64,000 nucleotides of DNA, taken from contig CBDBBW010000007.1 in the NCBI GenBank assembly GCA_965203225.1, positions 487,574 through 551,573 of the forward strand. Direction: 5' to 3'. How positions within the stretch are numbered: position 1 is the first letter of the stretch; each line of letters opens with the position of its first letter. Position numbers and translations under genes: made by a program. The DNA is from Bdellovibrionales bacterium (GTDB taxonomy: Bacteria; Bdellovibrionota; Bdellovibrionia; Bdellovibrionales; UBA1609). The notes below the pieces were generated by a model. That model saw only the letters and a program-made list of their open reading frames with translations, ran no database searches and was not told the DNA's origin. Below, one piece after another: positions 43,494 to 56,941 of the stretch.

Positions 43494-44069
43494 ATGAAAA
43501 TAAAAAACAACAAAGGATTTTCGTTGATTGAAGTTCTAGTCACTGTAGGGCTTGTCGGTATCCTGGTGGGTATTGCCGTGCCAAGTTATCGGGGCTACAA
43601 ACAAAATACTGTGAAAATGGCAATAAAGGCGGATGTGGCCAACGGCTCCAAAGTTTATAACGCCAAGTATGCGACAGAATCAACATATTGTTATACTTTA
43701 TTGGATGTTGGGCTTCCACCCATAGCTCAAAGGGCGGTGAATCCTTTGTATAAAAGGCAAGCATTTTATGGCTTTCAGGATGTCGACAGTTCGTGTTCAG
43801 GTGTAAATAGTGGTGATCTATCTTATAAAAGCTCGGGAGCTGGATGTTCTGATACCACACATACAGATCAAACAGCATGTACAGGCGCAGGTGAAACATG
43901 GACGACAAGTGCGGCTAATGCTTTTTCTGGAAGTCCGGCAACGTGTGTATTGGAATCTCAAGCTTTTAAACTTGGAGCAACAACCAATGTTGCTGATTTA
44001 AATGTTTTTTTTACGGCAAACCATGAAGGACAAATACTGGAGGAAGCCACCGGTACTGATTGCCAGTAA
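43494..44069 (+). CDS. Type IV pilin-like protein (prepilin N-terminal methylation motif)
   Basis: MKIKNNKGFSLIEVLVTVGLVGILVGIAVPSY is a class III signal with G|F..E5. There are C-terminal Cys pairs. SD GAAGGGGG lies upstream. Confidence 0.85.
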   Translation: MKIKNNKGFSLIEVLVTVGLVGILVGIAVPSYRGYKQNTVKMAIKADVANGSKVYNAKYATESTYCYTLLDVGLPPIAQRAVNPLYKRQAFYGFQDVDSSCSGVNSGDLSYKSSGAGCSDTTHTDQTACTGAGETWTTSAANAFSGSPATCVLESQAFKLGATTNVADLNVFFTANHEGQILEEATGTDCQ

Positions 44070-44688: not shown

Positions 44689-45861
44689 ATGGCTATAACC
44701 AAAAGACCTTTAAAGAAAAACAGACAAAGAAAATTATGTTATCGAGCACAGATTTATGTCAAACACGTTCATATTAAAACCAAGCCTTTTAAGAACGAGA
44801 TAGACACTTGTATTTGGCATGATAAGGAAAAAGAGCGATTTTTGAAAGATCCTTCAGAATTATATCAGAAAAAACATTCTCTCTTTTTTTCCGATTGTTT
44901 TAAGCAGTATAGGAAAGAGGCTTTTCCTTTGCTTAAAAAATCCACACAGCAAAGTTATGAGGAGCGATTTCGGTATTTCACAAAAGGTCCTCTTCCTAAT
45001 GTTAAGATGGAGTGTTTTAATGCCAGATGTGTTCATACATGGATTAACTGGCTTAAGGAACATTCCACCGCGACAAACAAAAGAAGGAAGAGTTTTGTTC
45101 ATGAATTGCAGTTGCTTTCAGTCATTTTAAACTGGTACCGCAACTTTATGGATGAAGATTTTAATGTTCCCATTACAAAACAGCATAGGCAACTTTGCCA
45201 CTATAAGGCTGTTTCGCCCACCCGGCCTGATTATTATGCGAGACCGGATGAATTGAGGCTTTGGATTAAGTGGCTCAAGCAAAACAGAAGCAATCCGGTA
45301 TATTGGAGGCTGGCTTCTTTTATGCTCCTTACGGGGGCGAGAGTGGGTGAAGCCTGTGGCCTGCTTTGGTCTGTTGTGGATTTCAAGCAAGGAACAGCGA
45401 GAGTAATGAGGAGGATAAGGTGGGACCATTATACAAGAAGACCGCATCTTGAAGATGCAACAAAGACGGAGGCTTCCGCGCGTCTGCTGGTTCTTTCTGA
45501 TGAGTTGATAAGCATACTTAAGGCGATGAGGGGGGAAAACAGGGCAAGTGAGTTTTTATTTACAGACAAAAAGGGCGGGGCTTTAAAATACAATGCTATT
45601 CAATCGGCATTTAATGCAGGCTTTATAGCATTAAAGCTCCCTTGGCGCTCAACCCACATATTAAGGCATTCCTACGCCACAATGGCTTTAATAGCTACGA
45701 GAGACCTATCTGCGGTTCAAGCGAGCCTTGGACACACAGAGCAAAGAGTCACTCAGAGGTATGCTAAAGTAGTTGCTCTTTTAAATAGACAGACAGCGGA
45801 AAAAACCACTAAAGCTTTTGACCTGTTTAATGGGGAGCTTGATAATGGATTTATCAACTAA
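44689..45861 (+). CDS. Tyrosine recombinase / phage-type integrase
   Basis: LLTGARVGEACGL (Arg I), HILRHSYATMAL (H-x-x-R), LGHTEQRVTQRYAK (catalytic Tyr). 390 aa. Confidence 0.9.
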   Translation: MAITKRPLKKNRQRKLCYRAQIYVKHVHIKTKPFKNEIDTCIWHDKEKERFLKDPSELYQKKHSLFFSDCFKQYRKEAFPLLKKSTQQSYEERFRYFTKGPLPNVKMECFNARCVHTWINWLKEHSTATNKRRKSFVHELQLLSVILNWYRNFMDEDFNVPITKQHRQLCHYKAVSPTRPDYYARPDELRLWIKWLKQNRSNPVYWRLASFMLLTGARVGEACGLLWSVVDFKQGTARVMRRIRWDHYTRRPHLEDATKTEASARLLVLSDELISILKAMRGENRASEFLFTDKKGGALKYNAIQSAFNAGFIALKLPWRSTHILRHSYATMALIATRDLSAVQASLGHTEQRVTQRYAKVVALLNRQTAEKTTKAFDLFNGELDNGFIN

Positions 45862-46116
45862 AGAGCGTCTTTGTTTTCTGGAAGTTTTTGGTTTATCTGA
45901 AATAGAAAAATCCAAATCTTCACTCAATCTATAGAAACCAACATAACATTTATTGAGAAGAGTTCCGCCTTTAAAAACCAATAGATTAGACCAATCTACA
46001 TAACCTTTTCCCTGAAAAATTTCCTTAAGAATCAGTGAGCAATAATAATCTTTTTCTATTAAAATTTCAGAAAATCCTGAGTTTTGAGAGGTCTTTCTAA
46101 TAGCTTCTAAAAAAAC
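45862..46116 (-). pseudogene. AbiEii-type nucleotidyltransferase toxin, N-terminal fragment only
   Basis: Manual translation: VFLEAIRKTSQNSGFSEILIEKDYYCSLILKEI...LVFKGGTLLNKCYVGFYRLSEDLDFS (AbiEii signature iEKDY...FKGGTaL.K....RfSEDlDF). There is no canonical start, and it is cut off where the integrase 3' end begins. Confidence 0.6.
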
Positions 46117-46126
46117 TTATTCTTTT

Positions 46127-46948
46127 TTATGAAAGTGTAACATTTTCTATAATATTCCATTTTTTATTTACAGAGCCCTTTCTGTTTTTGGGATCAAGAG
46201 GTGTCAGAAAATTTGTATTAGATATTTTCTTTTGTAATGGGTTGATAATTTTCTTTGAAACTTTTAATTGATCTAAAGCCCAGCCAATTCTTTTCTGACT
46301 TATTATATTTCCATATTTGATTGACACATCAATCAGTTTTTTTAATTGGATTTTTTTATCTTTTAAAGAACGAGCTATCCATTCATAAGCAACAGGTAAA
46401 GTTCCATATTTTTTATAATCATAAACAGCATCAAGAAGAGCTTGTTCTGGAGAGCTATATCTTACCCATATAAATTTGTCATCCTCAGTATAAACTTTCG
46501 CTTTTTTTATATTTCCTAAACGAGTTGAAACAACTTTTGTGAAATCCAAATGATATTGAAGAAAATATTTTTTTCTGGAAATTTTATTGTTATATACAGT
46601 AAACCATGCTGAAACTTGATCAGAGTACCCATATAAATTAAATACAGCCTGTCCGCTAATATGAAACTTAGCTCCAACATTTTGCATATATTTATTTATG
46701 ATTAAATAAGGGGAAGGAGACCAACTGCCACTTAAGGGGAGTCTTTGAGGCACTAAATAAAAACCTCGCTCAAGCTGAAAAATAATCCTATTTGAAGATA
46801 AGTTATAAAGTAAATCAGCTTCTTGTTTAGGAGAAAGATTCATGGCTTTTACAAGATCACCGGTTCTTACTTCCTCTTTTTTTTCAAATTGAATCCATGC
46901 AAAAAATTGCATTTCCCAAGGCCCCAATAAAGATTTTTTCTTTGTCAT
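46127..46948 (-). CDS. AbiEi-family antitoxin/transcriptional regulator
   Basis: N-terminal wHTH ...VRTGDLVKAMNLSPKQEADLLYNLSSNRIIFQLERGFYLV and C-terminal ...SSPEQALLDAVYD fit AbiEi. It lies immediately upstream of the AbiEii fragment. Confidence 0.65.
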   Translation of the reverse strand: MTKKKSLLGPWEMQFFAWIQFEKKEEVRTGDLVKAMNLSPKQEADLLYNLSSNRIIFQLERGFYLVPQRLPLSGSWSPSPYLIINKYMQNVGAKFHISGQAVFNLYGYSDQVSAWFTVYNNKISRKKYFLQYHLDFTKVVSTRLGNIKKAKVYTEDDKFIWVRYSSPEQALLDAVYDYKKYGTLPVAYEWIARSLKDKKIQLKKLIDVSIKYGNIISQKRIGWALDQLKVSKKIINPLQKKISNTNFLTPLDPKNRKGSVNKKWNIIENVTLS

Positions 46949-47750: not shown

Positions 47751-50501
47751 ATGTTAGAAAAACAGACACGACAAGAAATTATTGATAAGTTGCTTAAAAA
47801 AGCTGGCTGGGATGTAGATAATCCTTCACAAGTTGTTTCTGAACATGAGGTTTTTCATCAAATAGGTACGGTTAGTGGCGTTGGTTTTTCTGATTATGTT
47901 TTACTAGATAAAGCTGGCAATCCTCTTGCTGTTGTAGAAGCAAAAAAAAGCTCTTCTGATGCAAGAAAAGGAAGAGAACAAGCCAAACAATACGCAGATG
48001 GTTTTGAAAAAGCAGGACATGATCGACCTTTTATTTTTTATACTAATGGGAATAATATTTATTTTTGGAATGATTCAACAGATATACCAGGAAAAATTTA
48101 TGGCTTTCTTACAAGAGATGATTTAGAAAGCTTGCTATTTAAAAGAAAAGAAAAATTAGACTTATCTTCTTTGCCAATTGAAACCAACATTGCCGGTCGC
48201 CCTTATCAAATAGAGGCTATCCGAAAAGTGATAGAAAATTACTCTCAAAATAAGCGTTCTGCTTTGCTTGTTATGGCTACAGGAACAGGAAAAACCAGAA
48301 CAGCTATAGCTATTATAGATATTTTGATGCGCTCTCATTGGCTTAAAAGAGTTCTCTTTTTAGCTGATCGAAACGCCCTTCTAAGACAGGCAAAAGCATC
48401 CTTCACAGAATATTTACCCCATGCTCCTAGACACTGGATTAAACAAGGCCGGTTTCCTGAAGACAAACGAGTTTATTTTTCCACCTATCCCAGTATGCTT
48501 AGCTTATATCATAAAATATCACATGGTTTTTTTGATCTTATTATTTGTGATGAGTCTCATAGAAGCATTTATAACAGATACAGAGAAATACTGGATCATT
48601 TCTATTCTTATAAATTAGGCTTAACAGCTACACCAGTTGATTATATTGATCGAAATACTTTTCATTTATTTGATGTTGAAGTAGGCAATCCCAGCTTCAA
48701 CTTCAGTTATGAAGATGCTATAAACAATAAGCCTTCCTACTTAGTCCCCTATCAAGTTCTATCTGTGCAGTCTCGTTTTCAAATGGAAGGCATTAAAGCT
48801 GGTCAATTACCGGTCTCTGTTCAAAAAAAATTAGTAGCAGAAGGAAAAGACTTAGAAGAAATTGACTTTGACGGAACAGATTTAGAAAAGAAAGTTACAA
48901 ACTCTGGAACAAATGAGTTGATTGTTTGTGAGTTTATGAAGGAGTGTATCAAAGACGAAAATGGAGTCTTGCCCGGAAAATCCATTATATTTGCTATCTC
49001 TCACAAGCATGCTTTAAGGCTTGAAGAGGCTTTTAATAAAATGTTCCCTCAGCATAAAGGTCGTCTGGCTAGAGTGATTGACTCCCATAACCCCAGAGCT
49101 AATACAGAAGGAGGTCTATTAGATCAATTTAAAGACCCTAAAAACCCTCTAAAAGTAGCTGTTTCAGTAGATATGCTGGATACAGGTATTGATGTGCCGG
49201 AAGTTGTCAATCTTGTATTTGCCAAGCCTGTATTTTCAAGGGCTAAATTTTGGCAAATGATAGGAAGAGGAACAAGGCTTTGCCCCAATTTATTTGGTCT
49301 AGCTAAAGATAAAAAGAATTTTTTAATTCTAGATCATTGGAATAATTTTTCTTACTTTGAAATGAAGCCAGAAGGAAAAGAGCCTTCTACTAGCCGTTCT
49401 ATTCCAGAGCAGTTGTTTCAAACAAAACTTGATAAAGCAGAGGCTGTTTTGTCTCACTCTCTAACACATCTTAAAGACAAAACTATCCAATCTTTAAAAG
49501 AGGAAATCAATGCTCTGACTATGGAAAGTGTTCCTGTAAAAGAAAAGGCTGGACAAGTGGCTCAAGTTAAAGAAGAAGCTTTTTGGAAAAGCTTTAATCA
49601 AAATAGTATTGATTTTTTACAGAAACACATTTGCCCGCTTATGAAGACACAAATGGCTAGAGATTTTCAATCTCTGCGCTTTGATATTGATATTTTGGAA
49701 TCTCAAATTGCCGTAATCCACCAGGACGAAGAACAAATTGAAAAAACCAAAGAAAAAATACAACAAAAAATATCTGAACTTCCTTTAACATTAAATCAAG
49801 TCCGAGCGAAAGAGTCTGTTATCACTAAAACCAGATCACAAAATTTTTGGAATCAGTTATCAGAAGAATCTCTTGAAAGCTTAAGACTTGATTTGAGAAA
49901 GCTCATGCAATATCGCTCTCTGCCTAGTAATGAAATGGAAAAATTGCATTTAGAAGACATGGTTTTAATTAAACAAAATATTGAGTTTGGACCCGACATG
50001 GAACAAGCTGGTGTTTCTGAATATCGCAAAAGATTGGAAACAAAAATACAAAACCTTCTTTCTAATAATGAAGTTTTACAGCGTCTTAAAAAGGGTAAAA
50101 AGATTGACGATGTAGATATAGAAAATTTGGCCTGTATTTTACAAAGTGAAGACCCTTATATTACACTGGATAACTTAAGAAAAGTTTATGACAATAAAAA
50201 AGCCAGTTTTATTGATTTTATAAATCATGTTTTAGGGCTTCAAAAGCTTCAAACCCGATCAGAAATTATTGCAAATTCTTTTGATCTTTTTATAAAAAAT
50301 CATAGTGATTTCAGTTCGGATCAAATTCGATTCCTGCAAATCCTCAAAATTTTTGTGATTGAACGAGGACAGACTACAAAAGAAAATTTAACCTCTCCGC
50401 CTTTTACCAACTTACATCATGAAGGCGTTATGGGTATTTTTAAACCTCAACAAATCACAGAAATTTTATCTTTTATAGAGGAAATAAATGAAAAGCTTTA
50501 A
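47751..50501 (+). CDS. hsdR: Type I restriction enzyme R subunit (EcoEI-like, COG4096 type)
   Basis: N-terminal PD-(D/E)xK nuclease FSDYVLLDKAGNPLAVVEAKK, helicase motif I MATGTGKT, motif II ICDESHRS, and a C-terminal EcoEI_R_C-like domain (...FSSDQIRFLQILKIFVIERGQ...). Confidence 0.85.
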   Translation: MLEKQTRQEIIDKLLKKAGWDVDNPSQVVSEHEVFHQIGTVSGVGFSDYVLLDKAGNPLAVVEAKKSSSDARKGREQAKQYADGFEKAGHDRPFIFYTNGNNIYFWNDSTDIPGKIYGFLTRDDLESLLFKRKEKLDLSSLPIETNIAGRPYQIEAIRKVIENYSQNKRSALLVMATGTGKTRTAIAIIDILMRSHWLKRVLFLADRNALLRQAKASFTEYLPHAPRHWIKQGRFPEDKRVYFSTYPSMLSLYHKISHGFFDLIICDESHRSIYNRYREILDHFYSYKLGLTATPVDYIDRNTFHLFDVEVGNPSFNFSYEDAINNKPSYLVPYQVLSVQSRFQMEGIKAGQLPVSVQKKLVAEGKDLEEIDFDGTDLEKKVTNSGTNELIVCEFMKECIKDENGVLPGKSIIFAISHKHALRLEEAFNKMFPQHKGRLARVIDSHNPRANTEGGLLDQFKDPKNPLKVAVSVDMLDTGIDVPEVVNLVFAKPVFSRAKFWQMIGRGTRLCPNLFGLAKDKKNFLILDHWNNFSYFEMKPEGKEPSTSRSIPEQLFQTKLDKAEAVLSHSLTHLKDKTIQSLKEEINALTMESVPVKEKAGQVAQVKEEAFWKSFNQNSIDFLQKHICPLMKTQMARDFQSLRFDIDILESQIAVIHQDEEQIEKTKEKIQQKISELPLTLNQVRAKESVITKTRSQNFWNQLSEESLESLRLDLRKLMQYRSLPSNEMEKLHLEDMVLIKQNIEFGPDMEQAGVSEYRKRLETKIQNLLSNNEVLQRLKKGKKIDDVDIENLACILQSEDPYITLDNLRKVYDNKKASFIDFINHVLGLQKLQTRSEIIANSFDLFIKNHSDFSSDQIRFLQILKIFVIERGQTTKENLTSPPFTNLHHEGVMGIFKPQQITEILSFIEEINEKL

Positions 50502-50511
50502 GTTAAATTGC

Positions 50512-52004
50512 TCAACTAAAATTAATTTGGAAGTCTTTAATCATTCTTTCAATAACAGGATGATGAGGTATATAGCAAAACATTTGAAGGTTGCTGTCTG
50601 TTGTATCATACAACACATCTAAAAGAGGAAAAGAAGGGTTAACTAGACCTATTCTCACTAAACCTAAATGTGGACTCATAGGTCGAACCTGTTCCCAAAG
50701 CCTTAACCTTAATTGGCTTAAAACTTCTGGTTGTCCTTTTAATAACCTACCTAATTCATCATGAATATAGTCTGTTAATTTTATAAACCTTGTTCCCAAA
50801 GACAACTGAATAGGACTCCCACCGCTCCTAAATATCCAATCTAATTGAACAGCTATATTCCAACCCCCACTATATAACTGCTCTGGAGAAGTTCTTAATT
50901 CATTATGTGTAGCTATAACCAATGTTCTGGGAATAATTTGATAATTGTCAGTCTCTGGAAATGGACTATAGTTTGGAGCCTCCAGATGAAGAACAGGGTA
51001 AGAAAAATTATTTTTCTGGGCTGTTTTAATTTTAAATCTCGCATTAGTTCCAATATTATCATCGTGTATGTATAGTATATCACTTGAAGAATCTTCTAAG
51101 GTAATAGTAGGTATTTCCGATGAGCTAAGTTTATCTCTAAAACCCACTGCACACACAGCATGTGGTCCAATATCTTGATTTCTACTTTTCAAATCACCTA
51201 AAACAATAACAGGATAGCCTGATCGGATATAGGAGGCAATAGAACTCATAAATCGATCTTTTGTGAAATATTTTTGATTATTCAATATATAATCACCATT
51301 TTGAACCATAGGAGACAGCCCTAACTCTTTTATAGCTTCATATAGTTGAAAGTCAGTTAAACCTTTTGAGGGGAATGTTTTTGAGCCTAAAGAAGCTGTC
51401 TTATTTGCCAGCTTAGTAATCTCTGCCGTGGTTGGTATGGCATGAAAATCATCAAATGCAGAAGATTGAAGGGCTGACCATAAAGCAATTGTTGCACAAG
51501 CCCCTACCCCAGAATCTTGCTGTTGCCAAGCTAAACCTTCTACTTTTAATTTAACTCCGGCAACATGACAAACATACTCTCTTCTTACTGTTAAGCGGTT
51601 ACTGTTTTGCTCTTTGTTCCCATACCATTTAAGGACAGTCCGTCCAAACTGAGTTTGTATAGGTCTTAAAACACAAAAACCGAGATAATTGTCACTTAAA
51701 ATTCGTATAGAATTTTTATCTCCTCCAACAGCTTTTTCAAAAAATGCTCTGTCTATACTATCATCAGAAAAAAGTGAAACCTTTGACAGATATTTTCATA
51801 TCCAGAAACACTGGTAGAATAAAAAGATGAAAATTCAGATAGATAATCCCTATCAAAATAGTTTGGCTCTATCAATATCCTTTTTACATTTAAACCTTGA
51901 AGATAATTTAAAAGATACTGCGTTTGTTTTGAGTTTTTATTTTTAGTTAATCTCTCTTTACCTTCTTCAAAAGACAAAAATTCTAATGACTTGGGAGAGT
52001 GCAT
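50512..52004 (-). pseudogene. ~497-codon papain-like (Cys-His) peptidase-fold protein with an unassigned N-terminal domain, split by a frameshift in a homopolymer
   Basis: The track shows 83 aa (52004-51753) plus 265 aa (51309-50512). My translation shows the second frame is open from 51795 with no Met. One extra T in the T6 run (A6 on the plus strand, 51768-51773) fuses ...CQRFHFF to SDDSIDRAFFEK.... Catalytic-looking WQQQDSGVGACATIALW (Gln + Cys), GPHAVCAVGF (His), IHDDNIG. Confidence 0.55.
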
Positions 52005-52028
52005 GTAAATTCCTGATTTAACAAACTA

Positions 52029-52226
52029 TTATTTTTGAGGTTTAAACATTTTTGCCATTTCTTCTATTTCAGGAGCTGGCTTATTGATGTCAATGTTATT
52101 ATCTTTAATATGTTGGATTGCTTTTTCTATCTCCTGATGTGTGGGAAGAAAAGACTCATCCATATCTGCAAGAGTTGTTGTCCATAAAGACGACCTTTGA
52201 TTTTTTGCTTTCTCTGAATGTCCCAT
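52029..52226 (-). CDS. Small acidic hypothetical protein, 24 nt upstream of the peptidase-like gene
   Basis: 65-aa ORF on the same strand, tightly spaced. No recognisable motif. Confidence 0.35.
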   Translation of the reverse strand: MGHSEKAKNQRSSLWTTTLADMDESFLPTHQEIEKAIQHIKDNNIDINKPAPEIEEMAKMFKPQK

Positions 52227-52425
52227 AATCTCCTCCTGTGTCCTTATTTATATTGTAGCTCTTCAAATAGTCAATAAGTAGTTATTTCTGTTTTTTAGCT
52301 TAAAAATGGATGGTATAATTTCCCTAATTATTTAAAAAAAACTTTTAAAAACAAGGTAGAATCTTAATTAAATGTGGTATTATATATATTGACACTACCA
52401 CATTTAATAGGGATACTACCACATT

Positions 52426-53526
52426 ATGAGTTCTTTAAGCCCAAAATTCATTGATTCACTCAATTTTAACAGCTCTCATTTAGCCGATTTAAGAAGGCTT
52501 GGAGAATTTAGAGGAAAACAAGACCTTTTTAGTAAAAAATCACAAGAAGCTCTCAAAGTTCTTAAACAACATGCCATTATTGAATCTATTGAATCGTCCA
52601 ATAGATTGGAGCAAATCACAGCTCCTTATCAAAGAATCAAAGGGCTTGTAAATCAATCCACAACTCCAAAAAATCGATCGGAAAAAGAAATATCAGGTTA
52701 TAGAGATGCTCTTAATCAAATCCATGAGTCTTATAAACACATGGAAGTATCGGTTAATATAATAAAGCAATTACATACAATAATTTATCGCCATTTATCA
52801 GAGGACGGAGGAAAGTTTAAATCAGCTGATAATAAAATTATTGAAAAAGACCCTAGCGGACAGATTATTCGGGAGCGTTTTGCCCCTGTGTCTGCTCTCC
52901 AAACTCCTCAAATTATGGATAAGTGCTGCAAAAGTTACATAGATTTTTTAAGCAATACTAGCACAGACCCTCTTATTCTTTTGCCTCTTTTTATTTTGGA
53001 TTTTCTCTGTATTCACCCTTTTAAAGACGGAAATGGTCGTATTTCCAGACTGCTAACTCTTTTGATATTACACCGTCATGGTTATGAAGCGGGAAAATAC
53101 ATAAGTTTAGAACGGATATTTGAAGAATCAAAAGAAAGCTACTATAGAAGCCTTTATGAAAGCTCTCAAAACTGGCATTCAGCTAAGCATGATCCTTTCC
53201 CTTGGATAGAATATTTTTGGGGGGTTATGATTAAAGCCTATAAAGAATTTGAGGAAAGAGTTACTCATATTAAAGACACCATTGGCGGAAAAGGCTCTAA
53301 GGCAGAACAAATCAAATTTATTATTAGAAAAAAAATAGGACCCTTTTCTATTTCAGATATTGAAAAAGCCTGCCCCGGTATAAGCAGAGATTGGATTCGT
53401 TATGTTCTAAGAGAACTTAGAACCAAAGGAGAATTACAATCTATTGGAGTGGGTCGTGGCTCTAAATGGGTTTTAGTAAAAGGCTGGGGAGGCGGTTTAG
53501 ATTTTGAAGATAAAGAAGACTCATAA
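52426..53526 (+). CDS. Fic/DOC-family protein (AMPylase-type) with C-terminal wHTH
   Basis: Canonical Fic motif HPFKDGNGRISRLLT (HxFx[D/E]GNGRxxR). 366 aa. Ends 27 nt before hsdM-S. Confidence 0.85.
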   Translation: MSSLSPKFIDSLNFNSSHLADLRRLGEFRGKQDLFSKKSQEALKVLKQHAIIESIESSNRLEQITAPYQRIKGLVNQSTTPKNRSEKEISGYRDALNQIHESYKHMEVSVNIIKQLHTIIYRHLSEDGGKFKSADNKIIEKDPSGQIIRERFAPVSALQTPQIMDKCCKSYIDFLSNTSTDPLILLPLFILDFLCIHPFKDGNGRISRLLTLLILHRHGYEAGKYISLERIFEESKESYYRSLYESSQNWHSAKHDPFPWIEYFWGVMIKAYKEFEERVTHIKDTIGGKGSKAEQIKFIIRKKIGPFSISDIEKACPGISRDWIRYVLRELRTKGELQSIGVGRGSKWVLVKGWGGGLDFEDKEDS

Positions 53527-53553: not shown

Positions 53554-56058
53554 ATGTTAGAAGCTGGCTTAAAATCAAAAATTGATAAACTTTGGGATCT
53601 ATTTTGGTCTGGCGGGATAGCCAACCCTCTTACAGCTATAGAGCAAATTTCCTATTTGCTTTTTATGAAAAAATTAGATGATCAAGATATTAAGAAAAAA
53701 AAAGAGGCAAAGTTTGTCGGGAAAGCTTATCGTTCCATTTTTAAAAACAATAAGGAACTGTGTTGGTCTCACTGGAAACACTTTGAAGCGGAGCAAATGC
53801 TTAATCATGTTCGAGACAATGTTTTTCCTTTTATGAAAAAATTAAATTCAAGCAGTAACAATGGATTTTCTGCCCAAATGAAAGACGCTGTGTTTATCAT
53901 ACCCAAGCCGAGCCTGCTTGTTCAGGCTGTGGAAATCATTGAAAGCCTTAAAATCCACGAGCAAAACCAAGACACACAAGGAGATATTTACGAGTATTTG
54001 CTTTCAGAGTTACAAACTTCCGGCAAAAACGGACAGTTTAGAACTCCAAGACATATTATTAAAATGATGTGTGAATTAACAGATATAAAAATAGGGCAAA
54101 CAGTTTGCGATCCCTCTTGTGGAACAGGAGGTTTTTTAATAGGAGCTTATCAATATATTTTAAAACAACAAACAAGCCCAAAGCTTATCACTGTAGATGA
54201 AGAGGGCGTGGAACATGGACTGGTAAGAGATAAAATCACAAGCTCAAAAGCATGGAGTCATCTTAGAAATAAAACTTTTTATGGTTTTGATTTTGATTCA
54301 ACGATGCTCCGCATTTCTGCAATGAATATGGCTTTGCATGGTATTCAAAACCCAAATATAAAATATTTAGATTCTATTTCTAAAAGCAATGAGGAGGAAA
54401 ACCGCTATGATGTGATTTTAGCTAATCCTCCTTTTAAGGGAAACATTGATAAAGGCGATATTCATTCAGACCTCAGTAGAACAGTTAAAACAACCCGAAC
54501 AGAGTTACTTTTTATAGCTCAAATGATGAGACTTCTTAAAATTGGCGGACAATGTGCTGTGATTGTTCCCAGTGGGGTTTTGTTCCGATCAGACAAAGCT
54601 CATACCGCTATTAGAAAAAAAATTATTGAAGAGGCTCAACTTGAGGCTGTGATCTCTATGCCTTCGGGAGTGTTTAAACCTTATGCCGGAGTTTCAACAG
54701 CCATTTTATTATTTACCAAAGGGGGAGAGACAGAAAAAGTGTGGTTTTATGACATGACAGCCGATGGATTCAGCTTTGATGATAAACGAAGCAAAATAAA
54801 AGAAAATGACATTCCTGATATTCTTGAAAAATGGAAACAAAGACACAAGTTAAAAGAGCCGAAAAAAGAAGACAAATGGTTTTTTGTGATCAAAAAAAAG
54901 ATAGTGAAAAACAGCGATTACAGTTTGAATGGAAGAATATATAAAGAGACTGTAGATTATAGTCAAACAAAATGGCCTATGGTGGAGTTGGGAGGAATTG
55001 CTGATGTAATCTCAGGACAGTCTCCAGAGAGTAAATACTATAACAAAAAAGGTGAAGGGTTGCCTTTTTATCAAGGAAAAACTGAATTTTCAGATATATA
55101 TTTAGGCAACCCTGTTATATGGACAAATAAGACTACAAAAACAGCACAAAAAGATGATATTTTAATGTCTGTCCGCGCTCCTGTAGGTCCCGTTAATATC
55201 TCTACAGAAAAAATTTGTATTGGCAGAGGTTTAGCTACTATTCGGGCTAAAGATAAAGTCAATATGAAATTTTTATTTTATTTCCTGAAATCTATTTCTA
55301 GTCAAATTAGAGGGGTGGGTGGTTCTGTATTTGATTCCATAAATCAAAAGCAAATTAAACAAATAAAAATCCCTCTACCTCCTTTAGAAGTTCAAAAAGA
55401 AATTATAGATGAAATTGAAGGCTATCAAAAAATCATAGACGGAGCAAAACAAGTCGTTGATAATTGGAAACCCACTTTAAAAATTGATCCTTCTTGGTCT
55501 ATAGTGGAGTTGGGAGAAAATTGTAATATTCAATCGGGTGGCACTCCAAGTCGTTCAATAAAATCTTACTGGAACGGTAAAATTCCTTGGATAGGCTCAA
55601 CAGTTTGTAAAGATAAAGAAGTTATTAAAGCAAAAGAGTTTATTACAGTGAAAGGATTAAAAAGTTCATCAGCAAAGCTTTTTAAAAAAAACACAACATT
55701 GATTGCATTAGTGGGGGCAACTATTGGCAAGACTGGTCTTTTAAAGTTTGAGTGTGCAACTAATCAAAATATAGCTGGTTTATTCCCAAAGAATCCCAAT
55801 AAGGTTTATCCGATTTATCTTTTTTATGCAACACAGAAGCTTTATTCTAATTTTTTAAATTTAGGAGAAAAAAATTTTAAAATGGCAAATCTTTCTTTTG
55901 TAAAACAACAAAAAATCCCTCTCCCAACTCTTGAAGTTCAAAAAGAAATTGTAGAACAAATTGAAAAAGAAAAATCTCATGTTGAATCCTGTAAAGAGCT
56001 GATAAAAATCAACACAGAAAAAATCCAACAAAAAATAAACGAGATATGGAAAAAATAA
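53554..56058 (+). CDS. hsdM: Type I R-M methyltransferase fused to a complete two-TRD specificity subunit (HsdM-HsdS fusion)
   Basis: HsdM_N (LWDLFWSGGIANPLTAIEQISYLLFMKKL), GQFRTPRHII, motif I DPSCGTGGFL, motif IV ILANPPFKG. From about aa 470 there are two target-recognition domains, each followed by the conserved helix LPPLEVQKEIIDEIE / LPTLEVQKEIVEQIE. Confidence 0.8.
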   Translation: MLEAGLKSKIDKLWDLFWSGGIANPLTAIEQISYLLFMKKLDDQDIKKKKEAKFVGKAYRSIFKNNKELCWSHWKHFEAEQMLNHVRDNVFPFMKKLNSSSNNGFSAQMKDAVFIIPKPSLLVQAVEIIESLKIHEQNQDTQGDIYEYLLSELQTSGKNGQFRTPRHIIKMMCELTDIKIGQTVCDPSCGTGGFLIGAYQYILKQQTSPKLITVDEEGVEHGLVRDKITSSKAWSHLRNKTFYGFDFDSTMLRISAMNMALHGIQNPNIKYLDSISKSNEEENRYDVILANPPFKGNIDKGDIHSDLSRTVKTTRTELLFIAQMMRLLKIGGQCAVIVPSGVLFRSDKAHTAIRKKIIEEAQLEAVISMPSGVFKPYAGVSTAILLFTKGGETEKVWFYDMTADGFSFDDKRSKIKENDIPDILEKWKQRHKLKEPKKEDKWFFVIKKKIVKNSDYSLNGRIYKETVDYSQTKWPMVELGGIADVISGQSPESKYYNKKGEGLPFYQGKTEFSDIYLGNPVIWTNKTTKTAQKDDILMSVRAPVGPVNISTEKICIGRGLATIRAKDKVNMKFLFYFLKSISSQIRGVGGSVFDSINQKQIKQIKIPLPPLEVQKEIIDEIEGYQKIIDGAKQVVDNWKPTLKIDPSWSIVELGENCNIQSGGTPSRSIKSYWNGKIPWIGSTVCKDKEVIKAKEFITVKGLKSSSAKLFKKNTTLIALVGATIGKTGLLKFECATNQNIAGLFPKNPNKVYPIYLFYATQKLYSNFLNLGEKNFKMANLSFVKQQKIPLPTLEVQKEIVEQIEKEKSHVESCKELIKINTEKIQQKINEIWKK

Positions 56059-56272: not shown

Positions 56273-56772
56273 AATGAGGAGGATAAGGTGGGACCATTAT
56301 ACAAGAAAACCGCATCTTGAAGATGCAACAAAGACGGAGGCTTCCGCGCGTCTGCTGGTTCTTTCTGATGAGTTGATAAGCATACTTAAGGCGATGAGGG
56401 GGGAAAACAGGGCAAGTGAGTTTTTATTTACAGACAAAAAGGGCGGGGCTTTAAAATACAATGCTATTCAATCGGCATTTAATGCAGGCTTTATAGCATT
56501 AAAGCTCCCTTGGCGCTCAACCCACATATAAGGCATTCCTACGCCACAATGGCTTTAATAGCTACGAGAGACCTATCTGCGGTTCAAGCGAGCCTTGGAC
56601 ACACAGAGAAAGTGTTAGGTAGTCAGACCCAACAGACTGGGCACAAGCGAGCCTTGGACACACAGAGCAAAGAGTCACTCAGAGGTATGCTAAAGTAGTT
56701 GCTCTTTTAAATAGACAGACAGCGGAAAAAACCACTAAAGCTTTTGACCTGTTTAATGGTGAGCTTGATAAT
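56273..56772 (+). pseudogene. Duplicate of the integrase 3' end (direct repeat of 45405-45846), degraded
   Basis: Near-identical to 45405-45846, except for a few substitutions, a 1-nt deletion (acccacatat-aaggc, about 56528) and a ~59-bp insertion (about 56610-56668) that includes a 24-bp local duplication. The track ORFs 56274-56531 and 56510-56698 are its pieces. Confidence 0.9.
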
Positions 56773-56941
56773 TGAGTTTTAAGCTCTCTCACTTAAATTG
56801 ATAGCTTGTTGGAAAGAAAAGAGAAAAAACACTGTGAAAATCACTGCAAGAAAAAAGCGGTCATAAAAAAACCTTGTATTTCCAAAAGAGCGGCGGGGTG
56901 GACGGTATGATTCAAACCGCTTTTTTTAAAAAAGAGGTTTT

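Follow-up and report, generated by a model that had tools for sequence, protein, structure and literature searches.

A protease that stays latent until infection releases it is a concept common to several bacterial defence systems, among them Lit, which cleaves EF-Tu, CalpL-CalpT and the CHAT/caspase-like effectors. CapH, a helix-turn-helix repressor, and CapP, a zinc metallopeptidase of the ImmA/IrrE type (Peptidase_M78), work together in the de-repression of CBASS, Bub and other immune operons. Bub operons and their association with CapH and CapP have also been described (PMC11601596). In PrrC-EcoprrI and RloC, a gene that does not belong to restriction-modification (R-M) is found inside an hsd locus, and type II toxin-antitoxin and two-gene abortive infection (Abi) systems are built from a small gene and, coupled to it and downstream, a larger one for an enzyme. 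The locus studied here lies in a stretch of 64,000 nucleotides from a Bdellovibrionales bacterium (assembly GCA_965203225.1, contig CBDBBW010000007.1, positions 487,574 to 551,573), which we call the window and to which the coordinates refer. It is a type I R-M island in which a pair of genes, or cassette, on the opposite strand occupies the space from hsdR to fic-hsdMS. The pair encodes a 65-aa protein and a large protein with a probable papain-like peptidase core, the second gene being split by a frameshift. As far as the sequences tell, this pair resembles known two-gene protease-based defence or addiction modules in kind, and the family itself appears not to have been described before. The explanation that we favour, and to which we give roughly an even chance, is that the window carries a copy, put out of action not long ago, of an uncharacterised two-gene module that spreads horizontally, lives in defence islands and on plasmids, and may act as a protease switch of the toxin-antitoxin or Abi type. 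The genes concerned are the following.

47751-50501, plus strand: hsdR, type I restriction subunit (open reading frame (ORF) and domain scan).
50512-51767, minus strand: 3' part of the peptidase gene, codons 80-497 and stop, in the shifted frame (alignment of full-length homologs).
51768-51773, minus strand: frameshift site, a T6 run as read along the coding strand and A6 along the plus strand; intact relatives show T7.
51768-52004, minus strand: 5' part of the peptidase gene, codons 1-79 (ORF and translation).
52005-52028, minus strand: intergenic spacer of 24 nt with a ribosome-binding site, AGGA, 7 nt ahead of the ATG (52004).
52029-52226, minus strand: small partner gene, 65 aa, intact, isoelectric point 5.85 (ORF and translation).
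52426-53526, plus strand: fic, SoFic-like in PADLOC, divergent from the cassette.
53554-56058, plus strand: fused hsdM-hsdS, an 834-aa ORF with an N6_Mtase domain and two Methylase_S stretches.

An earlier account of this DNA made from its letters and ORF list (hereafter the sequence-only reading) had described a minus-strand pair between hsdR and fic-hsdMS, consisting of a 65-aa ORF, a 24-nt gap and a long frame split at a T6 run, in which one additional T would restore 497 aa; we recover the same layout and the same junction. The peptidase gene ends 10 nt from the stop codon of hsdR, tail to tail. As assembled, the frame that starts at the ATG at 52004 closes at 51753 and gives an 83-aa product, and the frame shifted by -1 stays open from about 51795 until it meets a stop codon at 50512. 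Addition of one T to the T6 run joins them into a continuous protein of 497 aa, with CQRFHFF before and SDDSIDRAFF after the junction, and more than 716 homologs align end to end across the repaired site. The best homolog, P0001, comes from the metagenome contig L001, in which the gene is intact, with T7, and encodes 506 aa; in the nucleotide alignment of the two loci, A7 in L001 against A6 in the window is the only length difference of the coding region at the frameshift site. The long frame is therefore not a chance ORF.

The tract itself varies among close relatives, with T6 in the window (off), T7 in L001 and L071 (on), T8 in L004 and L005 (on) and T9 in L006 (off). It encodes a conserved His-Phe-Phe-Ser, for which AT-rich relatives have T7-T8 and GC-rich ones use TTC and have no run, so that the T-run can be traced to TTT-TTT-TCN codons for conserved residues in AT-rich genomes. 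In L006 (Bdellovibrionales OZ241456.1, 10001-11450) an independent +1 shift, T9 for T8, affects the same tract, and two shifts of opposite sign at one tract point to a mutational hot spot or a weak point of assembly. We consider it probable that the lesion of the window is a real and recent inactivation through a -1 deletion in a T7 tract. That the missing T is instead a homopolymer miscall in a long-read metagenome assembly, the gene being intact in the cell, seems doubtful but deserves serious thought: the lesion is a single-base length change in a homopolymer of 6/7 nt, the relative L006 differs by +1 at the same tract, and several related records are complete-chromosome metagenome-assembled genomes (MAGs), for which long-read assembly is suggested by the style of the contig names. 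On the other hand, the flanking genes (about 5.7 kb, mostly about 98-99% identical) contain 28 A/T runs of at least 6 nt, every one of them equally long in the window and in L001, and copies from short-read assemblies are also dead, by stop codons and by frameshifts outside homopolymers. The sequence-only reading had further allowed for an on/off contingency switch; the gene would then go on and off reversibly as the poly-T tract slipped. Such phase variation would suit the T7-T8 runs of relatives and the two independent length changes that the tract has undergone, one of -1 in the window and one of +1 in L006. We nevertheless assign little probability to it, since the tract is only 6-9 nt long, follows from the Phe-Phe-Ser codons, is gone in GC-rich relatives, and other copies have been killed by irreversible lesions. 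Programmed frameshifting was also considered and rejected, because there is no in-frame slippery heptamer and intact relatives are simply one T longer.

Loss of the large gene is not peculiar to the window. At least 10 of 67 copies of the family are disrupted, and by differing lesions, which include stop codons (L034, L041 and L048), frameshifts outside homopolymers (L032, L060 and L062) and, in the Bdellovibrionales MAG L050 (11005-13243), an insertion of about 2.2 kb between codons ~325 and ~348. Lesions of these kinds point to ordinary decay, and gene death at this frequency is suggestive of a cost or toxicity of the product.

The large protein was modelled with AlphaFold2 from 41 sequences, with a predicted local distance difference test score (pLDDT) of 80 and a predicted template modelling score (pTM) of 0.79. 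The bounds of its three domains were set from the secondary structure of the model and the pattern of conservation.

51562-52004, minus strand: N-terminal domain, aa 1-148 (model secondary structure and conservation).
50971-51561, minus strand: papain-like core, aa 149-345, assigned as probable (invariance, topology, weak profile and fold matches).
50515-50970, minus strand: C-terminal domain, aa 346-497, the most variable part.

In the core, 24 sequences with identities as low as 27% all share Q163, C170, H282, D315 and D316, and the close family without exception has N317 as well; the codons lie at 51496-51498 (Cys170), 51160-51162 (His282) and 51058-51063 (Asp315/Asp316, followed by Asn317). 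The Gln/Cys, His and Asp/Asn motifs pointed out by the sequence-only reading, WQQQDSGVGACATIALW, GPHAVCAVGF and IHDDNIG, are indeed present and contain the invariant residues of the family. Their order, with Gln, Cys at the N-terminus of a helix, His on a strand and Asp/Asn on the next strand, is the same as in the C39 and papain C1 peptidases of clan CA, the spacing between Gln and Cys being 6 residues in papain and 7 here. In both AlphaFold2 models a helix begins right after the Cys (H165-184 in the full model; C31 and then H32-42 in the core model), the pLDDT being locally low around it in the full-length model, and in the latter His282 and Asp315/316 lie on neighbouring strands (E277-290 and E310-315) with pLDDT above 85. 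Peptidase_C39_2 (PF13529) matches weakly in 8 of 41 and in 2 of 10 members, at best with an E-value of 8.4e-4 and 20.4 bits against a cut-off of 24 bits. With the full model, Foldseek retrieved the peptidase domain of ComA (PDB 5xe8; E 0.095, probability 0.80, target-normalised TM-score (TMt) 0.45), and the core-only model brought a slight gain only, with falcipain-2 (PDB 1yvb) on top (E 0.033, probability 0.75, query-normalised TM-score (TMq) 0.37). The C39 domain of ComA and falcipain-2 are the sole fold matches with a probability of at least 0.75, and none has an E-value of 0.001 or lower. GNAT acyltransferases, herpesvirus gB and Borrelia OspE/ErpC, which Foldseek listed at low probability against PDB and BFVD, were discarded as noise (TM below 0.3). 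Since a papain-like arrangement of residues coincides with recurrent matches to clan CA, we accept, from sequence and model, a papain/C39-like fold as probable for the core, as had been proposed before from the motifs. Compared with the peptidases of the clan, the cassette protein differs by its flanking domains, which have no detectable relatives, and by matches that all remain below threshold.

The two flanking domains differ in their conservation. The N-terminal domain has invariant residues of its own (E46, Y49, C73, R75 and R142) and a YFDRDYL motif, and it gave no match in Pfam, PDB or Foldseek; the sequence-only reading had been equally unable to assign it to a family. The C-terminal domain shares only 62% identity with its counterpart in L001, where the two remaining domains reach 87-88%, and in the distant relatives, which measure 530-730 aa, it is replaced by other sequences. 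The large protein is apparently cytoplasmic, and no N-terminal signal peptide is visible in the sequence of either cassette protein.

The small gene is a genuine partner of the peptidase gene. A small ORF on the same strand precedes the large gene in about 50 of 60 loci, and almost everywhere among the 65 genome loci scanned, at distances that range from an overlap of 4 nt to a gap of about 60 nt; the small protein appears to be translationally coupled to the large one. In the window, an AGGAGG Shine-Dalgarno sequence stands 5 nt before the ATG of the small ORF. The partner proteins measure about 55-90 aa, and 44 of them fit a single profile hidden Markov model with the consensus tLWt.P...W ... 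rlraY.TPvt.E.L. The small ORF of the window belongs to a version of the partner peculiar to the Bdellovibrionales clade and carries an N-terminal S-L-W-T motif, and orthologous ORFs of 66-75 aa in L001 and L003-L005 are 37-68% identical to it. Directly upstream of homologs with 27-30% identity on plasmids of Pseudomonas, Hymenobacter and Shewanella there is an ORF of 52-57 aa. As a small ORF stands before nearly every large gene, these three distant plasmid copies included, the pair is an old two-gene module, and the proposal of a real two-gene cassette is upheld. Between the window and L001 the small gene is the faster to evolve, with a ratio of nonsynonymous to synonymous divergence (dN/dS) of 0.54, against 0.13-0.30 for the enzyme.

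Comparison with L001 also bears on the history of the locus. L001 has the same order of genes as the window, namely AbiEi/AbiEii, hsdR, the opposite-strand pair, fic, hsdM and hsdS, and in both hsdR and fic the two loci are about 99% identical, with a synonymous divergence (dS) of 0.035-0.04. For the cassette, in contrast, dS is 0.48, and 1.2 in the C-terminal domain, with a dN/dS of 0.13-0.30, and the identities of its domains form a mosaic. A dS of 0.48 in the cassette against 0.04 in the flanks, together with a low dN/dS, identifies old, selected and different alleles within an R-M island of recent common origin. Read from these divergences, the cassette allele is one that was replaced by recombination and did not decay in place, and what entered the gap between hsdR and fic-hsdMS was a diverged allele of the module. 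Uniform decay of a pseudogene was considered as a cause of the low identity to L001 and rejected, in view of the dN/dS of 0.13-0.30 and of a divergence that is mosaic by domain. Purifying selection along most of the divergence implies that the gene was functional until recently. The copy in the window is broken and, as assembled, not a working gene; it thus serves as a sign that the R-M island has a variable "slot".

The family is large and has remained anonymous. The repaired protein has more than 716 matches at E-values of 1e-3 or lower, with 43-79% identity; those listed are mostly 480-540 aa long, and none of them bears a Pfam domain or a name beyond "hypothetical protein". A profile of the N-terminal domain alone retrieves about 2,956 representative proteins, most of the 150 listed being of about 500 aa, and the weakest listed matches that were checked still carry the peptidase core. 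The nearest relatives in genome collections are from Bdellovibrionales MAGs. No usable match to either cassette protein was found in Pfam (2025), NCBIfam (2026), PADLOC-DB 2.0 (2023) or PHROGs. A PADLOC scan of both cassette proteins returned no family at E-values up to 1 (the neighbours matched SoFic, AbiEi and REase_I), and searches of the PDB by sequence, with full-length profiles of close and distant members and with the N-terminal-domain profile, gave noise only. Literature searches found no published description of the family. Relatives were not found in GenBank phages or in IMG/VR, so that a phage origin or an anti-defence role is not supported. That the family is uncharacterised and occurs in defence contexts, as the sequence-only reading had suspected, agrees with these searches and with the neighbours described next.

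Genomic contexts were compared in 65 genome loci, representing about 57 lineages, and 145 immediate neighbours from about 50 non-redundant loci were scanned. Genes of hsd type lie within 10 kb in L001, L013, L020, L033 and L044, that is, in about 5 of about 57 lineages, and an HsdS fragment is found in L003; in L020 and L033 the cassette is directly beside hsdR, and Fic is present in L001, L020, L029 and L033. The copies linked to hsd genes are not each other's nearest relatives, which indicates several independent origins of the association. A link to restriction thus recurs in the family without being obligatory. The expectation that homologs would be embedded in hsd loci holds to the extent that such embedding recurs in about five independent lineages, and fails as a consistent feature of the family. 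The L071 copy (P0002, 77% identical) adjoins a fused Mrr-helicase-methylase, a type ISP-like enzyme. Among the immediate neighbours, XRE/CapH-like helix-turn-helix (HTH) genes are found with 7 members, ResIII, integrases and transposases with 3 members each, HsdR, GmrSD, Fic, ImmA/IrrE, ThiF and TIR with 2 members each, and BrxC with 1 member; a caspase-family gene stands beside the Hymenobacter plasmid copy. Operons of ubiquitin-like (Ubl) and E1 genes are at least as frequent as neighbours as hsd genes are. They are also the most striking link: the pair has a complete Bub-type operon next to it in L027 and L029 (type I) and in L052 and L068 (type II), and a Multi_ubiq+ThiF operon in L014 and L016. 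In four loci of Planctomycetota, L009, L010, L015 and L041, the pair is immediately preceded by a ThiF/E1-like gene that stands alone. In L010 (8723-13104) a TIR-domain gene is located directly downstream on the same strand, and a larger operon is possible there. Of the loci with Bub operons, L029 and L068 have the canonical CapH and CapP, CapP being the ImmA/IrrE protease, and the cassette as well. In four others, a CapH-like HTH gene is followed by the small and the large gene, divergent from a Bub-type operon of Multi_ubiq/E2/JAB-ThiF/DUF6527 composition or from a Multi_ubiq+ThiF operon (L027, 6454-11581; L052, 7158-11689; L014, 6947-11602; L016, 1391-6036), and their CapH-like genes are 34-39% identical to the CapH of L029; no M78 peptidase (CapP) was detectable in these four loci with the CapP of L029 as query. 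L032 and L074 repeat the order of HTH, small and large gene, in their case with no divergent immune operon in evidence. In the window, tblastn found no Ubl, E1, E2, JAB or DUF6527 genes, that is, nothing of the set that characterises the Bub/Bil operons. The company of restriction and Fic, of Ubl and CapH, of TIR, GmrSD and caspase-like genes, combined with allele swapping and gene death, is suggestive of the usual signature of immune or addiction modules.

How the pair may work can be approached through its likeness to known systems. The recurrence of CapH-like genes raises the question of a signal-activated regulatory protease comparable to CapP: the large protein would cleave an XRE/CapH-like repressor, aided by the small one in the role of cofactor or sensor, and so switch on the neighbouring immune operon, stand-alone copies being remnants or acting on another substrate. 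In L014, L016, L027 and L052, the small and large genes occupy, behind a CapH-like gene and divergent from Ubl/E1 operons, the position that CapP has in L029 and L068, with CapP itself undetected; the same order recurs in L032 and L074; and 31% of Bub operons carry CapH and CapP (PMC11601596). We nevertheless hold this explanation to be rather unlikely for the family at large. An HTH gene is adjacent in only about 7-9 of about 60 lineages, and in none of the window, L001 and the plasmid copies L069 and L070, so that most copies, the window included, have no HTH partner. The loci L014, L016, L027 and L052 fall in one subclade (L074 and L032 are unplaced), so that a single origin of the arrangement, or a few, may account for them; L029 and L068 hold both CapP and the cassette; and a gap of 65-185 nt between the HTH and the small gene leaves room for a separate promoter. 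The cassette moreover has an extra small gene and a Cys-His-Asp site with no M78 match, where CapP is a zinc metallopeptidase. The loci with CapH-like genes are largely confined to one subclade, and we keep the comparison with CapP as the main rival and not as a general explanation. The Ubl/E1 neighbours could also mean that the large protein is an accessory peptidase of ubiquitin-like conjugation, deubiquitinase-like or processing a precursor, with the small protein as tag or adaptor. Most eukaryotic deubiquitinases are papain-like, and at least six loci of differing layout have a ThiF/E1 gene no more than about 3 kb away, which would be a strong enrichment in view of the rarity of such operons. 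This seems improbable to us, since most family members have no E1 or Ubl gene nearby, the adjacent Bub operons are already complete without the pair, and the small proteins have no conserved C-terminal glycine and a consensus that is nothing like ubiquitin. Bub operons also bring their own peptidases, JAB and DUF6527 (PMC11601596).

The position of the cassette in the window had led the sequence-only reading to propose a second-line effector guarded by the R-M complex, in the manner of PrrC or RloC; on this model the pair would stay silent under the type I complex and fire when a phage inhibits restriction. The likeness is real insofar as, here too, a gene foreign to R-M stands inside an hsd locus, in this case one with an embedded fic, and could plausibly serve as a back-up of restriction; the embedding between hsdR and fic-hsdMS is shared by the window and L001, independent associations with hsd genes exist (L020 and L033 beside hsdR; L013 and L044 within 10 kb), and a restriction enzyme of another type adjoins the L071 copy. 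This proposal does not stand up well to the wider family and we regard it as quite improbable. In about 90% of lineages no hsd gene comes within 10 kb of the cassette, the closest relatives stand beside a different restriction enzyme or none, orientation and position relative to hsd genes vary, and exchange of the cassette allele took place without the R-M genes (dS 0.48 against 0.04). Nothing in the comparison speaks for physical guarding by the complex. PrrC and RloC combine an ABC-ATPase with an anticodon nuclease, whereas the cassette consists of two genes on the opposite strand that encode a peptidase, with no such domains and no similarity to PrrC, RloC or any PADLOC model, and the conserved partner of its own argues for autonomy. 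The maturation of a bacteriocin or of a ribosomally synthesised and post-translationally modified peptide (RiPP), with the small ORF as precursor and the large protein as C39 peptidase, would account for the weak C39-type similarity and for a small ORF directly upstream. We judge it very improbable: neither an ABC transporter nor a modification-enzyme family is among the 25 most frequent of 112 Pfam families in the 145 neighbours, the peptidase has no transmembrane or ABC part, the small ORFs have no Gly-Gly leader motif, and neither cassette protein shows an N-terminal signal peptide. C39 bacteriocin peptidases thus differ from the large protein, which is apparently cytoplasmic, nearly always paired with a small ORF, and has neither an ABC transporter nor a double-glycine substrate.

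A mobile defence or addiction module remains the explanation that we prefer, and several results count against it. No homolog of known function was found for the large protein; the protein of the window has no match above threshold to any curated peptidase family, its fold and profile matches being all below threshold. The small protein has no recognisable antitoxin or DNA-binding domain, its sole Pfam line having an E-value of 0.039 to an unrelated model. When the small ORFs of Bdellovibrionales were compared with the main small-ORF family by hhalign, only S/T-L-W-T was aligned (P 0.038, not significant), and the proposed homology of the two groups rests on position, size and this S/T-L-W-T motif. 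Some copies are found in ordinary surroundings, such as the relative in L072, among unrelated genes and with no R-M, that in L002, and that in L073, beside rtc RNA-repair genes. The absence from phage collections is neutral as regards defence and gives no direct link to phages.

In favour of such a module, the pair shares with type II toxin-antitoxin and two-gene Abi systems, one of which, AbiEi/AbiEii, lies next door, the small upstream gene coupled to a larger enzyme gene, the patchy horizontal spread, the copies on plasmids and in defence islands, and the frequent inactivation of the large gene. It differs from type II systems in that the small protein has no recognisable DNA-binding domain and in that the putative toxin would be a 500-aa peptidase of three domains. 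With Lit, CalpL-CalpT and the CHAT/caspase-like effectors it would share the concept of the latent protease, the cassette protein having no sequence or fold relationship to them and no PADLOC match. What we infer are the role of the partner, the trigger and the target. The small protein may inhibit the peptidase by binding to it, or may be bound as a decoy substrate; infection or stress would lift this restraint, and the freed peptidase could then cleave a cellular or phage protein picked by the variable C-terminal domain, with the conserved N-terminal domain possibly binding the partner or a ligand. A broader proposal, which we put forward as tentative and with a modest chance only, would make the pair a hitherto unrecognised class of signal-activated protease switch in bacterial immunity: the series of CapH-like, small and large gene would replace CapP at Bub operons, stand-alone copies would serve in abortive infection or as toxin-antitoxin pairs, and signal sensing and the choice of substrate would fall to the N- and C-terminal domains, both with new folds.

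Other features of the island were noted around the cassette.

52355-52425, no strand assigned: operator-like array of three copies of ACTACCACATT / AATGTGGTA, two direct and one inverted.

This array, situated between the divergent small ORF and fic, ends exactly at the start codon of fic, and from its layout it looks like a candidate operator array for some regulator. An integrase gene at 44689-45861 has its 3' part (45405-45859) repeated at 56273-56785, 10.87 kb downstream, with 96-100% identity. The block of AbiEii stub, AbiEi, hsdR, cassette, fic and hsdMS lies inside these direct repeats and so resembles a mobile island or a tandem integration. AbiEi is intact (46127-46948, minus strand, 273 aa; PADLOC E 5e-25), and AbiEii is a 66-aa N-terminal stub (45781-45981, minus strand) that abuts the integrase gene and is split into two ORFs in L001; it is a second degraded defence gene of the same island. 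Within the hsdM-hsdS fusion, a stretch of 63 nt at 55357 recurs at 55903. L001 instead has two genes, hsdM and an hsdS of half the size, and its identity to the window falls in the S part. Just upstream of the integrase and the island there is a type IV pilin-like gene (43494-44069, plus strand) with the N-terminal sequence KGFSLIEVLV.

The family to which the pair belongs has thousands of members in Bdellovibrionota, Gammaproteobacteria, Myxococcota, Planctomycetota and Bacteroidota and on plasmids, and it is strongly conserved, with about 45% identity between phyla and an invariant active site. It has neither a curated family nor a solved structure nor an assigned function. It is reasonable to regard the pair as a candidate for a new module of the immune or the toxin-antitoxin kind. 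If this is true, it would add a papain-like protease switch to the mechanisms of bacterial defence, and it could explain how Bub/Ubl operons are induced where CapP is missing.

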